Shown here: positions 1,344 to 63,574 of the stretch, one piece after another | How the letters are laid out: the number at the start of each line of letters is the position of its first letter | Numbering within the stretch: the stretch's first letter is position 1 | IMG/VR virus record: IMGVR_UViG_3300035491_000042 | Span: 32,001-96,000 of that record | Length of the DNA stretch: 64,000 bases | Source of the DNA: a virus | Lineage: Duplodnaviria > Caudoviricetes | Reading direction: 5' to 3' (one strand) | The notes under the pieces: model-generated | What the model was told of the DNA's origin: nothing | Seen by the model: the letters and a program-made list of their open reading frames with translations, nothing else | The model's database searches: none | Position numbers and translations under genes: made by a program

Positions 1344-2374
1344 TACTTTTCCTCGGTTTTGAGCTGCAAATATAGGGCTTCGAGCATTTTCTTGTCAATC
1401 CCATCAATGTCGACGCTCTCCCTGATCACCTTCACCACGACATCGTCAATGTTCTCGGTGTCAGAGACTTCGATATCTGCGCTCATGATCTCACGGGATT
1501 TGGTGTTGTTGAACTTGATACGCACACCGTCAAACGCCATCCCTGACAGCTTCTCTTGCACCTCATCGACGATGGAGTCATCGGTGACATCATCACCAAA
1601 CACAACGCGGATGGTTGTGTTTTCAACGTCATCACCCAGCTCCGCAAGCACCTCATCCAGCTTGTCATGATCAACAGAGATCACCTTGATACCCTGATAT
1701 GTCTCGAAGGTGGTTTTACCAGTGACGTCGTCGAAGATGAACACACCGTGGTCTTCGTTGGCTTCGTTCATGGTGATCGGGTATGGTGTTCCGACGTACA
1801 GGATGTTGTCCTTTTCCTGCATCGAGTGGTAGTGACCAGTCAGAACACGTTTGTACCCACGCAGCTCTCGGTGCGACTGACCATGTTCCATCTCATAGCG
1901 ATCATTCACCATGAAACCATTCAGCTCAAGGTGAGCGAACAGGTACTCAGCGTCCTTACTGGCGTTCACGACCTCATCCCACTGCTCGCCAGAGGCGATC
2001 CAAGGGGTCATCATGATATCACCGACCATAGTCGGTTCGTGGATCACTGTCACATATGGGCTCAGTACGTTGATGCTGCTGATATCAAGACGATCCAGAT
2101 AGAACAGGTCATGGTTACCTTCAAGCACGTAGACATTCTCACGTCCGAATACCTGACCCAACATCTGGGCACCGACGACGCCATAGTTCAGCGTCTGTAC
2201 CTGAATCTTACTGCGGCTGTGGAACCAGTCACCAAGTTGCACCACCTTGTCGACCTTATGGGCGAGACCAGTGTCAATCGCCCATTCCACGAAGTCAAGG
2301 ATGCTGTTGTTAAACTTCTCAGAGTCTCCGCGCTCACCAAAGTGCAGGTCTCCGATTACTAACCATCGGCTCAT
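1343..2374 (-). CDS. Recombination endonuclease nuclease subunit (T4 gp47/SbcD/Mre11-like)
   Basis: Metallophosphoesterase motifs GDLHFG, LGDWFH, GNHD, AHLEL, GHYH; lies between gp55-like and gp46-like genes. Confidence 0.92.
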   Translation of the reverse strand: MSRWLVIGDLHFGERGDSEKFNNSILDFVEWAIDTGLAHKVDKVVQLGDWFHSRSKIQVQTLNYGVVGAQMLGQVFGRENVYVLEGNHDLFYLDRLDISSINVLSPYVTVIHEPTMVGDIMMTPWIASGEQWDEVVNASKDAEYLFAHLELNGFMVNDRYEMEHGQSHRELRGYKRVLTGHYHSMQEKDNILYVGTPYPITMNEANEDHGVFIFDDVTGKTTFETYQGIKVISVDHDKLDEVLAELGDDVENTTIRVVFGDDVTDDSIVDEVQEKLSGMAFDGVRIKFNNTKSREIMSADIEVSDTENIDDVVVKVIRESVDIDGIDKKMLEALYLQLKTEEK

Positions 2375-2934
2375 TGTTCATTTTCCCATTCAATGACGTC
2401 TTCATCGTCGAAGTCGTCTTCATCACCGTCGTAGCGATCTTCCAGAATGGCTTTGCGTTCCTGTTCGCTGATCATGTCCATGTAGGCAGGATCGGCTTCG
2501 AGACCAAGCTCAAGCTTCATCTTGTTTACGACGTTGCGCTCAGTGTACTCGTTCTTGAGGAAATGGAACAACACATGCTTCATGCACGTGGTGAAATAGG
2601 CGTGTGGGTTGTTGCAGGTCAGGTAGTTGTACTCAACGATTTCGCCGTGCCATTCGACGATCTCTTTCCGAAGGATGTTGCCCTCTTCGTCTCGCTCAAG
2701 GATTTTTGTTCGATAGGGTCGAAACTTTGGGAAGCCTTTCACGCAGGCGAGCATGCATTCAGAGATGATGTCGTCGCGAATGTGAAAGAAGCGAACGTAG
2801 TTCGGGTGGTTGGCATAACGCTCCGCAAGGAGCATGAACATCTTAGCTAACTCATCACTGATCTCGTCTTTCTTCAGAGAGAGAAGCATTTCACGAAAGA
2901 AATCAGCGGGCTGAATGTAGTTTTTTTTACTCAT
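2371..2934 (-). CDS. Late-transcription sigma factor (T4 gp55-like)
   Basis: NNPHAYFTTC motif resembling gp55; 187 aa; acidic C-terminus; canonical gp55-gp47-gp46 order. Confidence 0.85.
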   Translation of the reverse strand: MSKKNYIQPADFFREMLLSLKKDEISDELAKMFMLLAERYANHPNYVRFFHIRDDIISECMLACVKGFPKFRPYRTKILERDEEGNILRKEIVEWHGEIVEYNYLTCNNPHAYFTTCMKHVLFHFLKNEYTERNVVNKMKLELGLEADPAYMDMISEQERKAILEDRYDGDEDDFDDEDVIEWENEQ

Positions 2935-3506: not shown

Positions 3507-4979
3507 ATGTCATTTCCAAATTCACCGGGCGTTTATGATCGCATCGTAGATCGCTCTTTTGTTGTCAATTCCGGTGGTATCGTAGCTGGTGGTATCGTTG
3601 TATCTGCCAAGCGTGGACCGGCTAAAGTAAAAACTGTTACTTCGGCTCGTGAGTTCATCGAGACCTATGGTCTTCCGTCTCGTGATAACCCATCACTGTA
3701 CGCCGCCCTTCGATATCTGAACCGTGCTGGTGTGCTGAGTGTGCGTCGTGTTACCACTGAAGGCGACGACTATGCCACTGGTACTCTACTGAGCGGGGTT
3801 GATGACCAACTTATCGTTGAAGCCGCGAACGAAGGCTCGTGGGGCAACTCACTAACTGTTTCGTTTGAAGAGAGTGTCATTGGCTCTCCATCCGTCGTCG
3901 GTTGGTTCTACTTGATCGTCAAGGACGATGGTGTAGAAGTCGAGCGTTTTGAAGTTTCTCGTGACCCGAATGCGAAGAATGGTTTTGGTAACAGCATCTT
4001 CATTGAAGACGTTGTAAACAACCGTTCGAAGTACGTTCGAGTGTATGACGTCCCAACCGTTACAGCCGAATATGACTACGACGCCGTTATCACGCTGAGT
4101 GGTGGTACTGATGCAAGCACTGCCCCAACCTCCGGCGAGATCAATCTGGCTTGGGCTGAGTTCAATAACGTCGAAGAAGTACCGGCTACCCTTCTGATCA
4201 ATGGTGGTTGGGCAGTGCCTGAAATTCATGTCGCCATGCTGACTGTGGCTCGGAATCGCAAGGATGCTGTTGCGATCCTAGACGTTCCAGAAGACGTTGC
4301 TGACGACGTACAGGGGATGATTAACTATCGAACTACCGAACTCGCTGCTAACACCTATTTCGGTGGTATTTATGGCGGTTGGTTGCGTGTTTACGACCAA
4401 TACAACGACCGTGAAGTTCTGGTTCCGCCATCTGGTGACGTTGCTGCTGTTTTTGCAAACACCATTGAAGTTGCTGAACGCTGGGATGCCCCTGCTGGTC
4501 TGCAACGCGGTATCATCCCGAACGCACTTGGCGTGAGCAAGGTCTTCACCGAAGGCGAGCGCGATCTTCTCTATCGTTCTGGTGTGAACCCGGTCACCAC
4601 GTATGCTGGTGCTGCTGCTGTTATCTGGGGCCAGAAGACCCTTCAGGTACAGGCGAGCGCTCTCGACCGCTTCAACGTTGTCAACCTCGTCCTTTGGATG
4701 AACCAACGCATCGTAGAATCGCTGCAACCGTTCGTGTTCCAGCCGAACACCGTGTTCACTCGCGATAGCGTGAACTACCTGATTTCGAACTTCCTTGAGA
4801 ATATTCGTCTTCGTGGTGGTCTGTATGGTTACTCTGTCGACACATCTGAAAATATCAACACCCCACAGGTGATTGATAATAACCAGATGCTTGTTGATGT
4901 GTATATCAAACCGACACGCACGGCAGAATTCATTCGAGTTAGCACCATTGTTACACCGACTGGCGTAACTCTGGCGTAA
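3507..4979 (+). CDS. Contractile tail sheath protein (T4 gp18-like)
   Basis: N-terminal SPGVY, VPPSG..A, W.APAG..RG, WGQKTL, FVFQPN, IKPTRTAEFI sheath motifs. Confidence 0.95.
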   Translation: MSFPNSPGVYDRIVDRSFVVNSGGIVAGGIVVSAKRGPAKVKTVTSAREFIETYGLPSRDNPSLYAALRYLNRAGVLSVRRVTTEGDDYATGTLLSGVDDQLIVEAANEGSWGNSLTVSFEESVIGSPSVVGWFYLIVKDDGVEVERFEVSRDPNAKNGFGNSIFIEDVVNNRSKYVRVYDVPTVTAEYDYDAVITLSGGTDASTAPTSGEINLAWAEFNNVEEVPATLLINGGWAVPEIHVAMLTVARNRKDAVAILDVPEDVADDVQGMINYRTTELAANTYFGGIYGGWLRVYDQYNDREVLVPPSGDVAAVFANTIEVAERWDAPAGLQRGIIPNALGVSKVFTEGERDLLYRSGVNPVTTYAGAAAVIWGQKTLQVQASALDRFNVVNLVLWMNQRIVESLQPFVFQPNTVFTRDSVNYLISNFLENIRLRGGLYGYSVDTSENINTPQVIDNNQMLVDVYIKPTRTAEFIRVSTIVTPTGVTLA

Positions 4980-4993
4980 TAAAATCTGGTCAG

Positions 4994-5023
4994 AAAAAAA
5001 ACCCCTCATTGAGGGGTTTTTTT
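4994..5023. terminator. Bidirectional intrinsic terminator
   Basis: A8-CCCCTC-ATT-GAGGGG-T7 between the convergent sheath and endonuclease genes. Confidence 0.85.
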
Positions 5024-37361: not shown

Positions 37362-37611
37362 GAAGTATTTCGCAGAGTGTGTCATGGTAGCACCAGATCC
37401 CGGTGCGAAGTCGAAGGATGAGCTTCTAACCAAGCTCTCCTTTGCGTATGTAAAATCAGCAGAGAATGTTGCGGAGTGTAATATCAAGAGAAGCACTGGG
37501 TTAGCTCTCCAACGTAAGATTGCTGCACGGATTAGTTTGGAGACTGATGATGGTAACACTGCTGATACTGGTGTGATCAGTTCGTGGTCTAAGCCGCAAA
37601 TTATTCCATAA
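37249..37611 (+). CDS. Outer-membrane spanin lipoprotein (Rz1-like)
   Basis: Signal peptide with lipobox-like LCTGC, Pro-rich; overlaps the i-spanin 3' end; GAGGA RBS. Confidence 0.8.
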   Translation: MNKLKIVTMMLLISILCTGCFFTRTVYQQVPVPVTIPEKYFAECVMVAPDPGAKSKDELLTKLSFAYVKSAENVAECNIKRSTGLALQRKIAARISLETDDGNTADTGVISSWSKPQIIP

Positions 37612-37654
37612 GCACTAAATAGTAATGTAACTTTTTCAACTAGGAGAAAAACAA

Positions 37655-38014
37655 ATGGCTGTAACAATCGTACAACGTACAATCGGTGGCGTCGAGAAAG
37701 ATGCTGTTGTGGTAGCTGGTGCCGCTGAGACTGAAGAAATTCTGCTCGACGAACAACTCATGGCTGCTGACTATAAGTTTCTGGATGAAGTAGATTCCAC
37801 TACCATTGAAGGTAATGAGAGTGCAACATTTATTGAGAAGTTTGCTGTAGCTGTACTTTCAATCGGTATCAGCGCTGTAGGCTTCTTTGCTGCTCGCACT
37901 CATCTAACTACCGAACTTCAGGCTGCTGCAAACAAGCGTATTGTTGCTGGTGATCTGGTAGCTGCCATCCAATCACTGGAAGATCGTGTTGCTGCACTTG
38001 AAACAGCGCCGTAA
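37655..38014 (+). CDS. Hypothetical late protein
   Basis: TAAATA at 37616, GGAG RBS, C-terminal coiled coil LEDRVAALE. Confidence 0.6.
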   Translation: MAVTIVQRTIGGVEKDAVVVAGAAETEEILLDEQLMAADYKFLDEVDSTTIEGNESATFIEKFAVAVLSIGISAVGFFAARTHLTTELQAAANKRIVAGDLVAAIQSLEDRVAALETAP

Positions 38015-38807: not shown

Positions 38808-40343
38808 TCAGAAACTGATCCCCCACACCTCATCATCCATATTGACCTCGTCAATATTGTTTACCCTGTCATAGACATCATCATCAAAGTTCGCAAGCTG
38901 TGGAAGCATATTCATCAGCAAGACAAGCGCCATCACCAAGTCATCCTTCGCACCTTTCTCAGCAGCAAACCCAGCTCCCTGCTTGATGAAGAACTTTAGC
39001 TCCGTCAAAACTTTGATGGAGTGTAGCGTCATGCGGTTGGTCTCAACCAAGTCCTTCAGCGACATACAGCCTGTCATCTTCTTCGGGTTGGTAGTATACG
39101 TGCCCAGTCGGGTGATAGTGCCATCTTTATTGATGTCCGAGATCATGATAGCATTCTGAAGAGCGTCATTGGTGCTGTTCTCGATCAGACGGATGATGCC
39201 CTGACCGATACTGTTCGCTTCTACAGTGTAGTAGACATCAACCGCCCCTTCATCGAATAGGTGCTCAATGAACGCAACGATCTCCTTGAAGTACATGGTC
39301 TGGTTCAGCGTATTGTTTGAGAACTCTGCAACCTGCTCAAACGTCTCCACGTCTACAGCCTGAATAGCATGGTTATCCTTCGAGATACCTTCAGCCACGT
39401 CACATGCAAACGCGATACGTCTTCCTTTGAAGCTCTCGACATAGATATCAAAGAACGTCCTGAACGTCCTTACTGGCTCCTTCGATGGGAGTGCTTCAAG
39501 AATCGAAGAGTTGATCAACAGGGGACTGTCAGACACGAACGCGCCTTCGTATTCCTGATGATACTTTTCCTTCGACATCTTACCAAGCATCTTCTTCTTG
39601 AACTCTTCAGTACGACCGGGGATCAGCTTGTAATCCACTTTCATGTACGCGAAGCCGTTACGCTTAGCCATGGCACCGAATGCCAGCTCAGCATATTTCC
39701 CTACAGTACCACGAGGGGTAGAGATGAAGATTGCCTTGGTTGTACTCTCTTCACCATCCGCAGTCAGCGATGGTAGCAGAGCAGTATAGAATTCTTCAGC
39801 CACCAGTGGGCTCACGAACGCAAATTCGTCGACGATAGCCAATTGGTTAGTACGACCACGAAGAGCGTTCTCACTGGTTACCTGTACATAGATTTGTGAA
39901 CCATGAGCGAATGCAACCTCAGTACGGTTGTACAAAGTAACAGCAGGCTTCAGGAAGTCAGGCAGTTCTTCATACGCAGTCTTCACACGCGCAAGGAAGT
40001 CCTTACAGTTCGCTGTTTTGAACGATGTGAAACCTACGGTGAAGTCGTCGGTGAAAATCGCCTGATGTAGAGCGTACAATCCAAGCGTAATAGTCTTTCC
40101 CGATTGACGCGGTGCGTTGACACACGTCATTTGCTCATCACAAATTAACCGAATCAAATCTTCTTGATAGATTCGAGGCTCGTAAAGTTTACGACCCTTT
40201 GGTGTTACTACCTTACAGTAGGTCGTCATGAAGTAGAACGGATCAGCAGCACACTTGATCCACTCTTCATCTTCTTCTTTGGTTCGAGGTTTCTCAGCAC
40301 CGGGTTTCTTGACAAGCGCCTCGACGACATTGTACTGTCCCAT
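38808..40343 (-). CDS. terL: Terminase large subunit (T4 gp17-like)
   Basis: KCAADP.YF, PRQSGKT Walker A, IVDEFAF Walker B, ISTPRG, DVAEG...D, DDLVMA. Confidence 0.95.
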   Translation of the reverse strand: MGQYNVVEALVKKPGAEKPRTKEEDEEWIKCAADPFYFMTTYCKVVTPKGRKLYEPRIYQEDLIRLICDEQMTCVNAPRQSGKTITLGLYALHQAIFTDDFTVGFTSFKTANCKDFLARVKTAYEELPDFLKPAVTLYNRTEVAFAHGSQIYVQVTSENALRGRTNQLAIVDEFAFVSPLVAEEFYTALLPSLTADGEESTTKAIFISTPRGTVGKYAELAFGAMAKRNGFAYMKVDYKLIPGRTEEFKKKMLGKMSKEKYHQEYEGAFVSDSPLLINSSILEALPSKEPVRTFRTFFDIYVESFKGRRIAFACDVAEGISKDNHAIQAVDVETFEQVAEFSNNTLNQTMYFKEIVAFIEHLFDEGAVDVYYTVEANSIGQGIIRLIENSTNDALQNAIMISDINKDGTITRLGTYTTNPKKMTGCMSLKDLVETNRMTLHSIKVLTELKFFIKQGAGFAAEKGAKDDLVMALVLLMNMLPQLANFDDDVYDRVNNIDEVNMDDEVWGISF

Positions 40344-40382: not shown

Positions 40383-41036
40383 ATGGAAAAAGAGATTCTG
40401 AGTAAATACCTCAATTACAACAGACGGACTGGGATTTTCACATGGAAGAAACGTGGTGATAAACGTTTCGATTCGCGATATGCTGGAACCCCTGCTGGAA
40501 CCATCCATGTCTCCACTACCGGGCGCAAGTCGGTGAAGATTAAGATCGAAGGAAAGAGCTACTACGCTCATCGGTTAGCATGGATTATGGTGACTGGTGC
40601 CCACCCAGAAGGTGTCATCGATCACATCGATCACAATCCCCTGAACAACAAGTGGAAGAACCTTCGTGACGTCTCACAGGCTGACAACATGAAGAACCGG
40701 AAGATGCCAGTGACCAACAAGACTGGGATACCAAACTGTTTCTTCTGCAACAAAAAGAAGAAGTACGTGGTGAAGATCGCCCCATTTGGTGAGGTGGGAT
40801 ATGCCACCAACAAGGTAGACGCTGCGAAGCTATCGAAATCTGCGAGAATTCGTGCTGGATATCACCATTCTCACGGAAAAAATGCACTTTTTGATAAATA
40901 TAAGTGTGAGAGGTTTTTCCTTCCTTTTTCCCTCTCATATAGGAAACCCGCCGATTGGCGGGTTTTTTGTTACCTCATTCTGCGACCTAGTATCCCTTCT
41001 CGGTTCATCCGTTTGATCAGTGTTTGTTTGAACTGA
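40383..41036 (+). CDS. HNH homing endonuclease; C-terminal ~50 aa is probably read-through
   Basis: YYAHRLAW...G..P...IDHIDHNPLNNKWKNLRDVS...N; family-like sequence ends near GYHHSHGK (~40880). Confidence 0.8.
   Translation: MEKEILSKYLNYNRRTGIFTWKKRGDKRFDSRYAGTPAGTIHVSTTGRKSVKIKIEGKSYYAHRLAWIMVTGAHPEGVIDHIDHNPLNNKWKNLRDVSQADNMKNRKMPVTNKTGIPNCFFCNKKKKYVVKIAPFGEVGYATNKVDAAKLSKSARIRAGYHHSHGKNALFDKYKCERFFLPFSLSYRKPADWRVFCYLILRPSIPSRFIRLISVCLN
40895..40968 (+). ncRNA. Putative late small RNA (promoter, hairpin with C/U loop, terminator)
   Basis: TAAATA 40895-40900; stem GTGTGAGAGG/CCTCTCATAT; loop TTTTTCCTTCCTTTTTC; terminator AAACCCGCC-GATT-GGCGGGTTTTTT. Confidence 0.5.
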
Positions 41037-41791
41037 ACTGCCTTATCAGTCCTGTCTCTCCTATCAGACTGTTGGAACCCTCGATATGTAATACCAAGAA
41101 CGTAAGATTTGTCCATGAGGTCGTCAAATGTGAAGCGATCCCAAATCTTCTGGTATTTCCGATATGCCTGATATACGTTGTGCGTCATAGCTTCCATCTC
41201 GTAGTCGGTGAGATATATCTCGCTCTTACCACGCTTACGAATTTTGTCTAGGTTCTTTCCACCAGTAGTATCGACATCATCAACTGACTTTCTGATCATT
41301 CTCGTTAAGTGCTTGTTATTCCTGATGTCATCAACGTAGTGAGCCAGCTCGTGGTAGATAGATTCTTTCACGCGGTTAGGGGACAGGTCGCGTTGTAGTT
41401 GGTTCAGGAATCCGGGCATCTTTTCTTTGATGCCGTTGATAGTTCCATCACCATATTGTTTCATGAATTTCAGTGCCTCTTGGCTGATACTCAATGATAG
41501 AATACCAGTGTGGGAGTTGTAGTGATTTCCTTCTCGGTTAACGAGGATGCTGATAGGTGCCTCGGCAAATACCAGTTTCAATTCATTTGACGCGAACAGA
41601 TTGCGGCGAATGATCGTTGGTGGTGTGAGAAGACGAACCGAAACGTCATCAGCGTGTCCGCCGTTGAACAGTTTCTGTACATCATCTCTGAATAACTGCG
41701 TATAAATCCTATCCACGTCTTTCGCCAGTTCAGTACGAAGAGCTTCGGTCAATAGCTCGTCTTTGTTTTCAAACAATTCTTCAATATTCAT
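40970..41791 (-). CDS. Putative internal head protein with zincin metallopeptidase motif
   Basis: N-terminus MNIEELFE..ELLTEA; SIYHELAH...YLTDYEMEA (HExxH...E). Confidence 0.6.
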   Translation of the reverse strand: MNIEELFENKDELLTEALRTELAKDVDRIYTQLFRDDVQKLFNGGHADDVSVRLLTPPTIIRRNLFASNELKLVFAEAPISILVNREGNHYNSHTGILSLSISQEALKFMKQYGDGTINGIKEKMPGFLNQLQRDLSPNRVKESIYHELAHYVDDIRNNKHLTRMIRKSVDDVDTTGGKNLDKIRKRGKSEIYLTDYEMEAMTHNVYQAYRKYQKIWDRFTFDDLMDKSYVLGITYRGFQQSDRRDRTDKAVQFKQTLIKRMNREGILGRRMR

Positions 41792-42708
41792 TCTAGGTAT
41801 CCTAATCTTTCTACTTCGGCATGAATCGCTTCAGCCAGATCGATGACGTTTCCTACACGGAATTTCACCATCAGTGTTCGGAGCTTCTGCATAGACTCCC
41901 GCTTTGTTTCGTTGAACATATCGTTCTTCAATTTACCGATCATTTCTTTCCTGTAGTACGGGTTATTGTACCCATACGGGCCAGTGAAGAAGAACATCAT
42001 TTCCTTGGTCGGTCGCTTTCCCTTCAGTAGCATCTCGCCAATGAGGATAAGGTTACGCAGAGCGTCAGTCTCGTATGGCTTGTAACGTCGACTTGGTGCG
42101 TCGCCGAACATCGGAGAGCCTTCGCTGCGATTGACAACAGCACCAAGACCAGCCGGGTTTCTACCGGTTAGCATCGTACTCTGGGTGTCAAATACTCTAA
42201 CAGGGACTCCAGCTCGTTTGGCAGCGAAAATCAGCTTATTGAGACCGCGATGAGTGTCTTTCATTGGCTCATCGCTGAACGTGCTTCTACGAGGCTCTTT
42301 CATCATGATATCGACACTCATGATGTACTTCAGCGCCGGGATCGTTCTGGTTGGTGAGAAGATGCGATCTTCCATCTCATCATTCAACGGAACACCGTGC
42401 TCGTTTCTGAACGAATCGCCCCAATAATCGACTGGCTTGCCAGCATAGGTCTGAGCAAGCTTTCGCCCATCCAAGACAAAGATGACAGTTCCATTAAACA
42501 TACTGTTCTCACTATTATGGTAGCTACCAGCACGACTACGTGTGGTACTTAGATAGAACATAGGCTTACCAGACTTCATTTCTGCATCTTTCGCAAAATC
42601 GGCACTAAGGATAAAGCGATTGTCCTCAATGATACTGGCTGCTTGCATTATGCCAGTTGAGTGATAGAGAACATTGCTGATCCCCTCAAATAGTTCTTCT
42701 ACTTTCAT
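41788..42708 (-). CDS. Putative internal head protein with ADP-ribosyltransferase-like fold
   Basis: MKVEELFEG; LYHST...YLSTTRS...DEMEDRI. Confidence 0.55.
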   Translation of the reverse strand: MKVEELFEGISNVLYHSTGIMQAASIIEDNRFILSADFAKDAEMKSGKPMFYLSTTRSRAGSYHNSENSMFNGTVIFVLDGRKLAQTYAGKPVDYWGDSFRNEHGVPLNDEMEDRIFSPTRTIPALKYIMSVDIMMKEPRRSTFSDEPMKDTHRGLNKLIFAAKRAGVPVRVFDTQSTMLTGRNPAGLGAVVNRSEGSPMFGDAPSRRYKPYETDALRNLILIGEMLLKGKRPTKEMMFFFTGPYGYNNPYYRKEMIGKLKNDMFNETKRESMQKLRTLMVKFRVGNVIDLAEAIHAEVERLGYLE

Positions 42709-43304
42709 CCGAATTTAAACCCCATGTTTGTAAGCATTGATTTGAACTCCTTCACAGAGTCATTATATGTTCTTTGTATATTCCGCAACAGGTAGTTGGT
42801 AGTTGGGATTCCTCGTTCTGATGTAACAGTGATAAAAGGAATACCTTTCAGCTCTTTCACCACATCGATAATGTGTCGAAGCTGTTCGTTGTAGTCACCA
42901 TCGAGGTTATCCCCACCACCAGAACGGTACACCTCTCGTGGCATATAGATGATTGCTCTGGTGATATACCGACGAATGCCTTTGATCTCGTTCGTATAGA
43001 TACGATCTTCCATCTGTGATCCCTTGCCTCTTAGGTGTACGATCTGCCAGTCATCTTCATCCATTTCTTCACGCCCAACAGGTGAACCGCTGTAGCGTTG
43101 ACCCAGAGCTTCACCATCGAGCTCGAAGAGTACACCAATCATTCGGTGGTCGCGTGGGTTTGACCCCATGACCGACCGGCTGAATGAGATTTCACCGATT
43201 CGTGAACGCATGGTATTCGAGCGAAGGATACCGCTCGCATGATCGAACGTGGTGAAATGATAGAGAGTCTTGGAAACTCCCTCGAAAAGGTCTTCAACTC
43301 TCAT
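42705..43304 (-). CDS. Putative internal head protein with ADP-ribosyltransferase-like fold (paralog of 41788)
   Basis: MRVEDLFEG; LYHFT...ISFSRS...LDG..L.Q.Y.G.PV...QMEDRI. Confidence 0.55.
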   Translation of the reverse strand: MRVEDLFEGVSKTLYHFTTFDHASGILRSNTMRSRIGEISFSRSVMGSNPRDHRMIGVLFELDGEALGQRYSGSPVGREEMDEDDWQIVHLRGKGSQMEDRIYTNEIKGIRRYITRAIIYMPREVYRSGGGDNLDGDYNEQLRHIIDVVKELKGIPFITVTSERGIPTTNYLLRNIQRTYNDSVKEFKSMLTNMGFKFG

Positions 43305-43714
43305 TTCTTAACCAGTCTGACCTTCTCTGCAAGCTCAGCACGACTCAAAGGCTTGTACTCAGCGGTGCTTTCTTCATCTTCACCAGCGCCGTCTTTGGCA
43401 ACCTCTGACCCCGTCTTACCGGCATTCGCCTTAACGATGCGTTTAGCCATCTCTTCGAGGTACTTCTTCTTGTAGATAGCGTCTTTGGCTTGGTTCAGGT
43501 ATCGCTCGCATACCTCAAGGTACTTCACCCGGTTCTTTGGTTCGATCAAGGCGATATCATCCATCTGCTCCTTGTACGCCTTTAGCGCAAGGTCAGCAAT
43601 CAAGTCAAGGTTTTTCAGCTCGCGCTCGTCTGGGATGTGTACGGCTACGTAGTCATCATCGATCATGTTGTCTGTTGCGATATTGAATTCGTCATCTAGT
43701 GGGTTCTTTGACAT
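43301..43714 (-). CDS. Possible terminase small subunit
   Basis: 137-aa helical protein, first gene of the late unit (TAAATA at 43737-43742, minus) pointing toward terL. Confidence 0.4.
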   Translation of the reverse strand: MSKNPLDDEFNIATDNMIDDDYVAVHIPDERELKNLDLIADLALKAYKEQMDDIALIEPKNRVKYLEVCERYLNQAKDAIYKKKYLEEMAKRIVKANAGKTGSEVAKDGAGEDEESTAEYKPLSRAELAEKVRLVKK

Positions 43715-62446: not shown

Positions 62447-63559
62447 ATGCTGGCAACAACATTCTTTGTCATCGCAATCACCCTTCCTGTCTATGTGGTG
62501 TTCATGTTCGCAGCACGTTACGTGTATGCGAAATATTTTCTTCATCGTCGAAAAGTACGCTACCGTTTCGGTGCTGATGATGGAATTTCCTACAAGGAAA
62601 TCGCCATGGGTGGTGTCTTCTACTCGCTGGTGATTGGTGCGACTCTTCTTGTCGCTTTCAATAGTGCTGGTGATGACACACTGGTCATCAACGGTGAGGT
62701 CACCGGAAAGTATCGCGACCGCGTGTCATGTGAGCATTCATATCGTTGCAATTGCCGTCAGAGCTGCTCAGGATCGGGGTCAAACCGTTCCTGTACCGAA
62801 GTTTGCTCTACTTGCTATGAGCACTCATATGACTATGACTGGGTTGTCAAATCCAACGTCGGTAACATCCTGATTGATCGTGTGAACCGCCAAGGAACGC
62901 GTGAACCACCTCGTTGGACTGCTGTTCGCATCGGCGAGCCCTTCGCCAAGCGTTTCAGCTACTTCAACTACATCAAGGCATCACCGACGACGCTGTTCAA
63001 CAACGTTGATGCTGAAAGTCTGCCTGCTATTGGCTACCCGACACGCATCACAGATTACTACCGTGCAGAGCGCGTCATCACGTATCAGACCAAGTACACT
63101 CCGTCTGGCAAGTTCAATGAACTGCTGAACGAGGGGCTGAAGACTCTACGCAGCCGCGCAGTGAACGTGAACGTCATCATCCATGGACACACCTCGGAAA
63201 TCGATGATGACATCATGACGAAGCTCATTGGCGGTAAGATCAACGATGTAACAGTCTTGATTGGTGTTGAGCCGGATGGTACAATCAAGTCTGCTGGTGC
63301 ATACTCTTGGAGTAAAAATCAGATGTTGACGATTGCGATCAGAGACGGTATCCTTGACGTCGCAACATTCGACAACAAACTGGTGAGTGATGTGATTCTG
63401 ACAAGCATTACGAAACACTATGTCCCTCGTGACATCGAAGATTTTGCATACTTGGAAGACAGCATCGAAATCCCAAAGGGCGTCATCATCTTCGTGATCC
63501 TGTTCAGCATTTTCGCTCCGTTCGGGATCGCAATCATCGCAGCAAAACTTGATAGCTGA
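62447..63559 (+). CDS. Membrane protein with a Cys-rich extracytoplasmic domain
   Basis: Two N-terminal and one C-terminal TM segments; CEHSYRCNC...CSTCYEH; ATG 62447 with GGAG RBS. Confidence 0.65.
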   Translation: MLATTFFVIAITLPVYVVFMFAARYVYAKYFLHRRKVRYRFGADDGISYKEIAMGGVFYSLVIGATLLVAFNSAGDDTLVINGEVTGKYRDRVSCEHSYRCNCRQSCSGSGSNRSCTEVCSTCYEHSYDYDWVVKSNVGNILIDRVNRQGTREPPRWTAVRIGEPFAKRFSYFNYIKASPTTLFNNVDAESLPAIGYPTRITDYYRAERVITYQTKYTPSGKFNELLNEGLKTLRSRAVNVNVIIHGHTSEIDDDIMTKLIGGKINDVTVLIGVEPDGTIKSAGAYSWSKNQMLTIAIRDGILDVATFDNKLVSDVILTSITKHYVPRDIEDFAYLEDSIEIPKGVIIFVILFSIFAPFGIAIIAAKLDS

Positions 63560-63574
63560 AAAAGGAAAGAAATC

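Follow-up and report, generated by a model that had tools for sequence, protein, structure and literature searches.

The 64,000-nt stretch analysed here (the window; bases 32001-96000 of the complete, 152,211-bp virus record IMGVR_UViG_3300035491_000042, which has direct terminal repeats and whose whole genome is labelled G000 below) carries, at positions 40895-40968 of its plus strand, what is very probably a genuine and independent small RNA gene of a T4-like phage. Pairing of the hairpin loop of its product with sequences resembling ribosome-binding sites appears the most likely single mechanism, a choice that we regard as tentative; to the reality of the gene and this mode of action, weighed together, we would assign a rough probability of 0.6. 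The unit very probably represents an uncatalogued, single-copy RNA family in a clade of T4-like phages that includes the Alishewanella phages Slickus01 and Slicko01, and its status as a gene is supported by the geometry, the covariation of the stem and the pyrimidine character of the loop, all of which are kept at identities of the terminase large subunit (TerL) of 43-52%. An earlier reading of the letters alone (the sequence-only reading) had proposed a trans-acting small RNA (sRNA) late in infection, made up of a TAAATA motif, a 10-bp stem with two G-U pairs, a 17-nt pyrimidine loop and a strong terminator. Each of these parts lies where it had been placed, and the discrete plus-strand gene is borne out by comparative evidence; the messenger RNA (mRNA) targets that were named for it are not.

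Folded as RNA, the plus strand of the element reaches -30.3 kcal/mol (z -5.35), which none of 200 shuffles equalled, and the predicted transcript (40906-40968) reaches -27.6 kcal/mol (z -5.80). On the minus strand the stem of hairpin 1 is reduced to 7 bp; the G-U pairs favour the plus strand, as had been supposed, and together with the promoter motif and the U-tract of the terminator, complete on the plus strand only, they all lie on the same strand. TAAATA stands 3 nt before the outermost possible base pair in the window, and the predicted start, G40906, is the sixth base after it. The longest pyrimidine run of the 152-kb genome (40914-40936, 23 nt) comprises the loop, and a scan of the whole genome detected no second hairpin of the same type. 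In Rfam 15 no family reached its gathering threshold; the best match over the element was STnc30 with 23.8 bits against a threshold of 120, and the remaining matches were leader or terminator look-alikes (E 0.57-9.5). A possible H-type pseudoknot, formed by the loop with AGGAAA (40942-47), was discarded on grounds of geometry, as a 1-nt connector would have to cross a 10-bp stem.

The element is under visible constraint in close relatives. Over 2.6 kb, the metagenome contig L083 aligns collinearly with the window at ~80% identity, and its proteins share 85% identity (p273 and p306) or 69% (the HNH homing endonuclease encoded next to the element) with those of the window. The best-conserved 60 nt of this alignment are positions 40910-40969 (0.98), compared with 0.58-0.82 in the adjoining HNH gene, and conservation begins exactly at TAAATA. 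Within 40895-40968, L083 differs at three places only: it has T for A40902 and A for G40904, the latter converting a G-U pair to A-U, and it has lost 1 nt of the terminator loop. The 17-nt loop of hairpin 1 is invariant. Among three lineages (the window, L083 and a near-identical variant present in contigs of the seawater runs X3, at depth 278, and X5) changes in the terminator are confined to its 4-nt loop. Another terminator of the region (38047) kept its stem in L083 but not its loop; the invariance of the 17-nt loop is therefore unlike that of a plain terminator. As a separate observation, the 4-nt terminator loop (40953-40956) reads GATT in the window and AATC, the exact reverse complement, in the X3/X5 variant, suggesting a single inversion of the hairpin loop rather than two substitutions.

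The element is located between the minus-strand genes for TerL and p273, directly 3' of the plus-strand HNH_3 gene (Table 1). In the window, the HNH open reading frame (ORF) stays open as far as 41036 and extends across both hairpins, which does not fit the description of the unit as self-contained. The X3 variant differs from the window by 6 substitutions and 1 indel over 801 nt, and in both X3 and X5 one extra A (A7) at the A6 run 40877-40882 brings TGA (40892-40894) and the following TAA into frame, so that the two stops overlap TAAATA; the HNH protein of L083 ends with 'SHGKK' and a stop, 18 nt before TAAATA. As the HNH gene thus stops before the hairpin in both readable relatives, the element is non-coding there, and to this extent the description as self-contained holds. 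Judged by these relatives, the read-through ORF over the element is an apparent frameshift product and not a sign of coding constraint. The frameshift at the A6 run, which may be a true mutation or an assembly error, adds a 47-residue tail to the HNH protein and creates a 67-nt overlap with p273; given this frameshift, the HNH mRNA would have no stop codon if the terminator works. A small ORF starting inside the terminator loop was considered and dropped, its start codon being lost in the X3 variant.

Table 1. Features of the small RNA unit, its neighbours and the late sigma factor in the window.
Feature	Position	Strand	Remarks
TAAATA, candidate late promoter (-10-type element) of the small RNA	40895-40900	+	Conserved in L083 and all family members
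Predicted 63-nt transcript	40906-40968	+	Start G40906 inferred from spacing after TAAATA
Hairpin 1, 10-bp stem (8 bp within the predicted transcript)	40904-40940	+	Fold and relatives
Hairpin 1, stem arms	40904-40913 with 40931-40940	+	G-U pairs G40904-U40940 and G40906-U40938
Hairpin 1, loop of 17 nt, U/C only	40914-40930	+	Read from sequence
Intrinsic terminator (GC core stem, 4-nt loop, T6)	40941-40968	+	Common to the HNH mRNA; faces convergent p273
Terminator, detail	Core stem 40947-40952/40957-40962; loop 40953-40956; T6 40963-40968	+	Read from sequence
HNH_3 homing endonuclease ORF	40383-41036	+	phrog_99, E 1.5e-48 over residues 3-174; PF13392
Terminase large subunit TerL	38808-40343	-	Small RNA gene upstream on the other strand
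TATAAATA, late promoter motif of TerL, 21 nt before the start codon	40365-40372	-	Conserved in L083
p273, convergent gene	40970-41791	-	Stop codon abuts the terminator; 85% amino-acid identity in L083
gp55-like late sigma factor	2371-2934	-	phrog_234 'late sigma transcription factor', E 6.5e-13

Units of the same kind are found in distant phages. The closest cultured relatives of the virus are Slickus01 and Slicko01 (TerL identity 43-44%). The window and L083 served to build a covariance model (R1), which matched L002 (Slickus01; 31.3 bits), L003 and L097; the rebuilt model (R2) scored these at 57-70 bits and detected a further member, L087. TerL of these four phages is only 43-52% identical to that of the window. 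A search of G000 with R2 gave no second copy, and one unit each was found in the whole Slickus01 genome and in the 60.7-kb record G001. Across 160 TerL-centred loci (1.33 Mb), full-length matches in the covariance search were restricted to L003, L083 and L097, the rest being terminators alone. None of L002, L003, L087 and L097 has an HNH gene upstream of the unit, which is therefore not part of an endonuclease cassette; in L003 it adjoins TerL on the upstream side and is encoded on the other strand, an arrangement like that of the window save that no HNH gene lies in between.

The layout of the unit is shared. In L002, L003, L097 and L087, TAAATA is followed by 5 nt and then by the first base of a perfect stem; the window deviates from this in that the sixth base, G40906, lies two pairs into the possible stem. 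The loops, 11-17 nt long, consist of a U-run, a C-rich core (CCUUCC, CUCCCC, CUCUCC, CCCCUCCC or CCCC) and a second U-run, and a spacer and terminator follow in every family member. In L002 (7730-7760), L097 (9560-9600) and L003 (4890-4930) there is a second, likewise conserved pyrimidine loop, on the terminator hairpin (UUCCUCUCUCAU, UUCCCUCUCUCA or UUCCCCUG); this is absent from the window lineage, which has two CC motifs in the first loop instead. All six predicted family transcripts fold into two hairpins, with z between -5.8 and -9.0. The sequence of the stem differs in the four distant relatives, yet it pairs in each of them. In an alignment of five sequences 95.7% of 92 cells pair, and the covariation that the sequence-only reading had proposed to look for is seen in 13 of 21 pairs, which change on both sides; none of 500 shuffles reached this, and with partners slid by 1-3 columns 44-61% of the cells paired and at most 4 pairs covaried.

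A model-free pattern scan, which asked for a stem of at least 6 bp around a U-run/C-core/U-run loop, found such a hairpin in 5 of 16 near-clade loci, each time with TAAATA within 30 nt upstream, but not in any of the 145 TerL loci that are more distant (2.4 Mb with both strands counted). Exactly one hairpin each was detected in G000, W01 and G001. The stems are perfect, 7-10 bp long and differ in sequence. Rfam gave no gathering-level match in the six loci holding family members, and annotation of the unit is absent from both Alishewanella phage records. A nucleotide search with the element and its flanks against the phage collection returned no match, and exact and degenerate pattern scans of IMG/VR returned 0 matches. 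A single-protein scan of IMG/VR with TerL also gave no match; the relatives came from alignment-based scans. Candidates that were rejected comprise one 20-mer match in L168, which has no stem and is a chance match, and R1 matches at window positions 4976-5022, at 2109-2161 and 365-406 of L003, and in L125 and L135, all of which are terminators that lack hairpin 1.

In this phage, TAAATA has the marks of a genuine promoter-like signal. Of its 77 genome sites, 25 are followed on the same strand, at a distance of 12-45 nt, by a called start, while such positions make up only ~2% of the sequence, and the same enrichment is seen in Slickus01 (33/165) and G001 (21/73). The genes preceded by promoter-placed sites encode the tail tube, baseplate, major head protein, protease, portal, scaffold and TerL. 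According to PHROG scans the virus is a T4-like myovirus that encodes RIIA/RIIB, NrdA/B, a clamp loader, Dda and UvsX-like proteins as well as a T4-type major head protein, portal, prohead protease, and tail sheath and tube. T4 late promoters direct initiation 6 nt after the motif. The site of the small RNA reads gATAAATA, 7 of 8 positions of the T4 consensus, with the start position deduced from spacing and with flank scoring that does not discriminate. As an aside, at 37590-37670 a late promoter motif (37616), the 5' leader and the first codons of the gene at 37655-38014 are almost perfectly conserved in L083, and the sequence just upstream of this stretch has a 38-nt deletion there; the stretch is thus a further regulatory segment under strong constraint.

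Taken together, these features suggest the following course of events. The TAAATA late-type promoter would be read by the host polymerase carrying the gp55-like sigma factor of the phage; transcription would start at about G40906 and end at the U-tract (40968) of the intrinsic terminator. The product, an RNA of ~63 nt, would consist of a 5'-terminal hairpin with a 17-nt unpaired U/C loop, a short spacer and the terminator hairpin, and its paired 5' end might favour stability. Late in infection, the exposed loop, with its C-rich core and flanking U-runs, could then pair with purine-rich single-stranded RNA, for example around the Shine-Dalgarno sequences of mRNAs from phage or host.

Several observations weigh against this interpretation, both for the gene and for its mode of action. 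Among the sequencing runs listed as containing the sequence, none is of RNA. The covariation figures come from an alignment that was fitted to the model and leans towards structure. The same bias applies to the pattern scan, as the pattern was written after the matches were known; its positives are thus circular, whereas the empty control of 145 loci is not. The family consists of five independent lineages only, and 11 of the 16 near-clade loci (mostly covering <=10 kb around TerL) contain no unit. The flanks of TAAATA do not separate promoter-placed from other sites, and by flank score the site at 40895 ranks 9 among the 52 that are not promoter-placed. In addition, the perfect identity to L083 extends 21 nt into the coding end of p273, and a recent recombination patch could be an alternative source of the conservation in this relative.

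With respect to the mode of action, the sequence-only reading had named the ribosome-binding site of a LemA-like gene (63558-63572) and several others as targets, and it had added that the matches might be due to chance. This caution was justified. The purine run at 63558-63572 is present and pairs with the loop at -13.9 kcal/mol, which is not above chance. Against 197 ribosome-site regions the loop pairs at a mean of -6.24 kcal/mol, compared with -6.14 +/- 0.39 kcal/mol for 400 shuffled loops; 163 of these 400 composition-matched shuffles pair as well or better, and the comparison with shuffled controls that had been suggested thus lends no support to pairing with particular ribosome sites of the phage. 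Sites at <= -10 number 23 for the real loop and 22.6 +/- 5.8 for the shuffles, and the best match to a ribosome site (-16.3) equals that of the shuffles (-16.4 +/- 1.6). Pairing at <= -10 was seen for 11.7% of the ribosome sites versus 3.4% of coding windows, a difference explained simply by the purine-richness of the former. No target is conserved among 75 ortholog groups of G000, Slickus01 and G001: the best predicted target, NrdB, pairs at -16.3 here and at -5.1 in Slickus01, and the best three-way case, TerL, has a combined rank of only 0.11 among the 75 groups. Pairing of the loop in cis with the HNH start region, for which an 8-nt match in the window can be made out by eye, was dropped, as the start region differs in L083.

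These results also bear on the possibility that the RNA is real and acts through protein binding or mimicry, and not through pairing with particular mRNAs, which we consider unlikely but worth keeping in mind. A binder of single-stranded pyrimidines (ribosomal protein S1, Hfq, a KH-domain protein or a protein of the phage) might land on the loop or be decoyed by it, or the loop might imitate the pyrimidine 3' end of 16S ribosomal RNA (rRNA) and so sequester ribosome-binding sites globally. This would agree with the conservation of loop character rather than exact sequence, with the lack of a specific or conserved target, with the CUCC- or CCCC-type core in four of five lineages, and with the second pyrimidine loop on the terminator hairpin in three of them. 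However, the same loop features are shown by base-pairing sRNAs with C-rich loops, and a global decoy would also strike the phage's own late mRNAs, which have similar purine-rich ribosome sites. In a more specific and rather improbable form, the RNA would be a late-expressed mimic of the anti-Shine-Dalgarno tail, an abundant, 5'-protected molecule whose C/U loop competes with 16S rRNA or, in a variant of the same idea, titrates a pyrimidine-binding translation factor. Such a mimic would explain why loop character is kept in the absence of a specific target, and if it existed, a T4-like phage would reprogramme translation globally late in infection and not gene by gene.

A role in cis, in which the transcript acts as antisense RNA or insulator, fully complementary to read-through from the convergent late operon (p137 to p273) towards TerL, and uncouples or tunes TerL expression by pairing or by colliding transcription, is improbable to a slightly greater degree. 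In the window, L083 and L003 alike, the unit separates the convergent operon from TerL and occupies the opposite strand; its full U-tract on the plus strand only makes leftward read-through plausible, no TAAATA is found between unit and TerL on the strand of TerL in L003, and TerL is the best three-way predicted target, though an insignificant one. In Slickus01, L087 and L097, however, the units are located elsewhere (downstream of TerL or before a p306-like gene) with no matching convergent arrangement, TerL of the window has its own TATAAATA, and an antisense role would leave the conserved pyrimidine loop unexplained.

Very improbable, in our view, is that there is no separate gene at all, and that the hairpins are the 3' end of the HNH mRNA with a two-way terminator, TAAATA being due to chance or to tandem stops. 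The position directly 3' of the HNH gene, the overlap of the TGA-TAA stops with TAAATA in the A7 variant and the 52 of 77 TAAATA sites that are not promoter-placed are all compatible with this, as is the embedding of promoters and terminators in or around free-standing endonuclease genes of T4, described in the available part of PMC2988022. Yet TAAATA, hairpin and terminator are all retained in four relatives that have no HNH gene upstream, L083 keeps TAAATA although its HNH stop lies 18 nt earlier, and ordinary terminators of this region do not keep their loops. Moreover, at 47 loci with the nearest HNH relatives (<=41% identity) a pyrimidine-loop hairpin was found downstream in only two, neither of them similar; together with the HNH-less relatives this rules out the hairpin as part of an HNH cassette. 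The simplest history is that an HNH gene was inserted between the TerL promoter and the putative small RNA promoter in the lineage of the window, and on the same comparative grounds the predicted RNA gene is older than this insertion.

Finally, it is extremely improbable that the minus strand is functional, with a purine-rich loop whose three GGA motifs are bound by a CsrA/RsmA-type protein (the alternative offered by the sequence-only reading), or that the element works as DNA, as a homopyrimidine mirror repeat, protein site or endonuclease target: GGA does occur three times in the minus-strand loop, and the first 16 nt of the loop are mirror-symmetric within the genome's longest pyrimidine run, but on the minus strand two G-U pairs become mismatches and leave one weakened 7-bp hairpin, family members likewise have G-U pairs on the strand of the unit only, the full U-tracts and the position of TAAATA favour the plus strand, with no promoter motif for the other, whose RNA would arise only by terminator read-through, the loops of the relatives are not mirror repeats and their minus strands have no spaced GGA motifs, and stem covariation with changing sequence points to RNA pairing.

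The surroundings of the unit deserve some remarks. The adjacent minus-strand genes p273, p306 and p199 (40970-43304) share the N-terminal motif M-x-[VI]-E-[ED]-L-F-E and resemble paralogues, and a p306-like gene lies directly 3' of the small RNA unit in L097. The 137-aa gene upstream of them (43301-43714) has relatives near TerL in L003 and L004; an assignment as small terminase would be a guess. The TerL gene of the window is uninterrupted, whereas close relatives have an insertion of ~1 kb after about residue 83 (window ~40085-40111; L083 2660-3706), exemplified by protein P0001 (851 aa, 99% identical), which contains a LAGLIDADG_3 domain and is likely to carry an intein; several other relatives have long TerL forms with intein-type domains. 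About 10 ORFs of G000 match HNH or other homing-endonuclease families, the NrdA ORF of 1411 aa has extra inserted segments and the DNA polymerase is in several pieces. The genome is heavily colonised by mobile elements.

Strictly lytic phages are known to have yielded few small RNAs so far, and hardly any with a defined promoter class. The unit described here offers an architecture that can be tested, with a late promoter motif, a start predicted on the first base of the hairpin and a terminator, and it appears to be conserved as a single copy across a deep clade. As a homologue is present in two cultured phages whose host, Alishewanella sp. SMS8, is known, expression, timing and function are directly accessible to experiment. 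If the loop pairs with ribosome-binding sites, RNA-based translational control would be added to the T4-like late programme. In addition, the locus would provide a worked example of a homing endonuclease gene inserted between a small RNA gene and the terminase gene with neither destroyed.

Among known systems, Type I sRNAs derived from 3' untranslated regions (UTRs) of enterobacteria, such as DapZ and MicL, have an internal promoter near the stop codon and share the terminator of the mRNA. The unit resembles them in the window and L083, where its candidate promoter is located at the end of the HNH gene and the terminator is shared; in contrast to these sRNAs, this arrangement is secondary, as the RNA gene stands alone in four relatives. 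With respect to late transcription, the phage resembles T4 in encoding a gp55-like sigma factor, and its candidate A/T octamer core would, as in T4, lie at a fixed short distance before the predicted start. According to the available part of PMC2988022, promoters and terminators also surround free-standing endonuclease genes of T4, and hairpins hide the ribosome sites of these endonucleases; a free-standing endonuclease gene amid promoters and terminators of its neighbours is thus common to both phages. In the T4 case described in that part of PMC2988022, a late promoter is contained in the hairpin by which the endonuclease gene, at its 5' end, conceals its own ribosome site. In the present phage, the promoter motif is located 3' of the endonuclease gene and would serve a predicted non-coding RNA of hairpin and terminator, which is also present in relatives without the endonuclease.

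In its presumed mode of action the element would work most like the base-pairing sRNAs with C-rich loops, to which RsaE/RoxS of Firmicutes belong. 6C of Actinobacteria presents C-rich unpaired loops to G-rich ribosome-binding sites (available part of PMC6486639), and SprX of Firmicutes is another base-pairing sRNA of the C-rich-loop type (available part of PMC4005690). In the portions of the literature accessible to a search for late phage small RNAs of this kind and for Alishewanella phages, no description of such an RNA was found. The predicted RNA has no similarity to 6C, RsaE/RoxS or SprX at the level of sequence or covariance model and differs from them in being phage-encoded, in its T4-type late promoter motif, in its much U-richer loops with U-runs on both sides, and in that the targets named for it fail the shuffle control. 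It shares with them the short length, the one or two hairpins, the C-rich cores of the pyrimidine loops, the intrinsic terminator and the expected partner, a purine-rich sequence of Shine-Dalgarno type. By this comparison, the unit is a new, phage-encoded putative RNA family of an already known kind.

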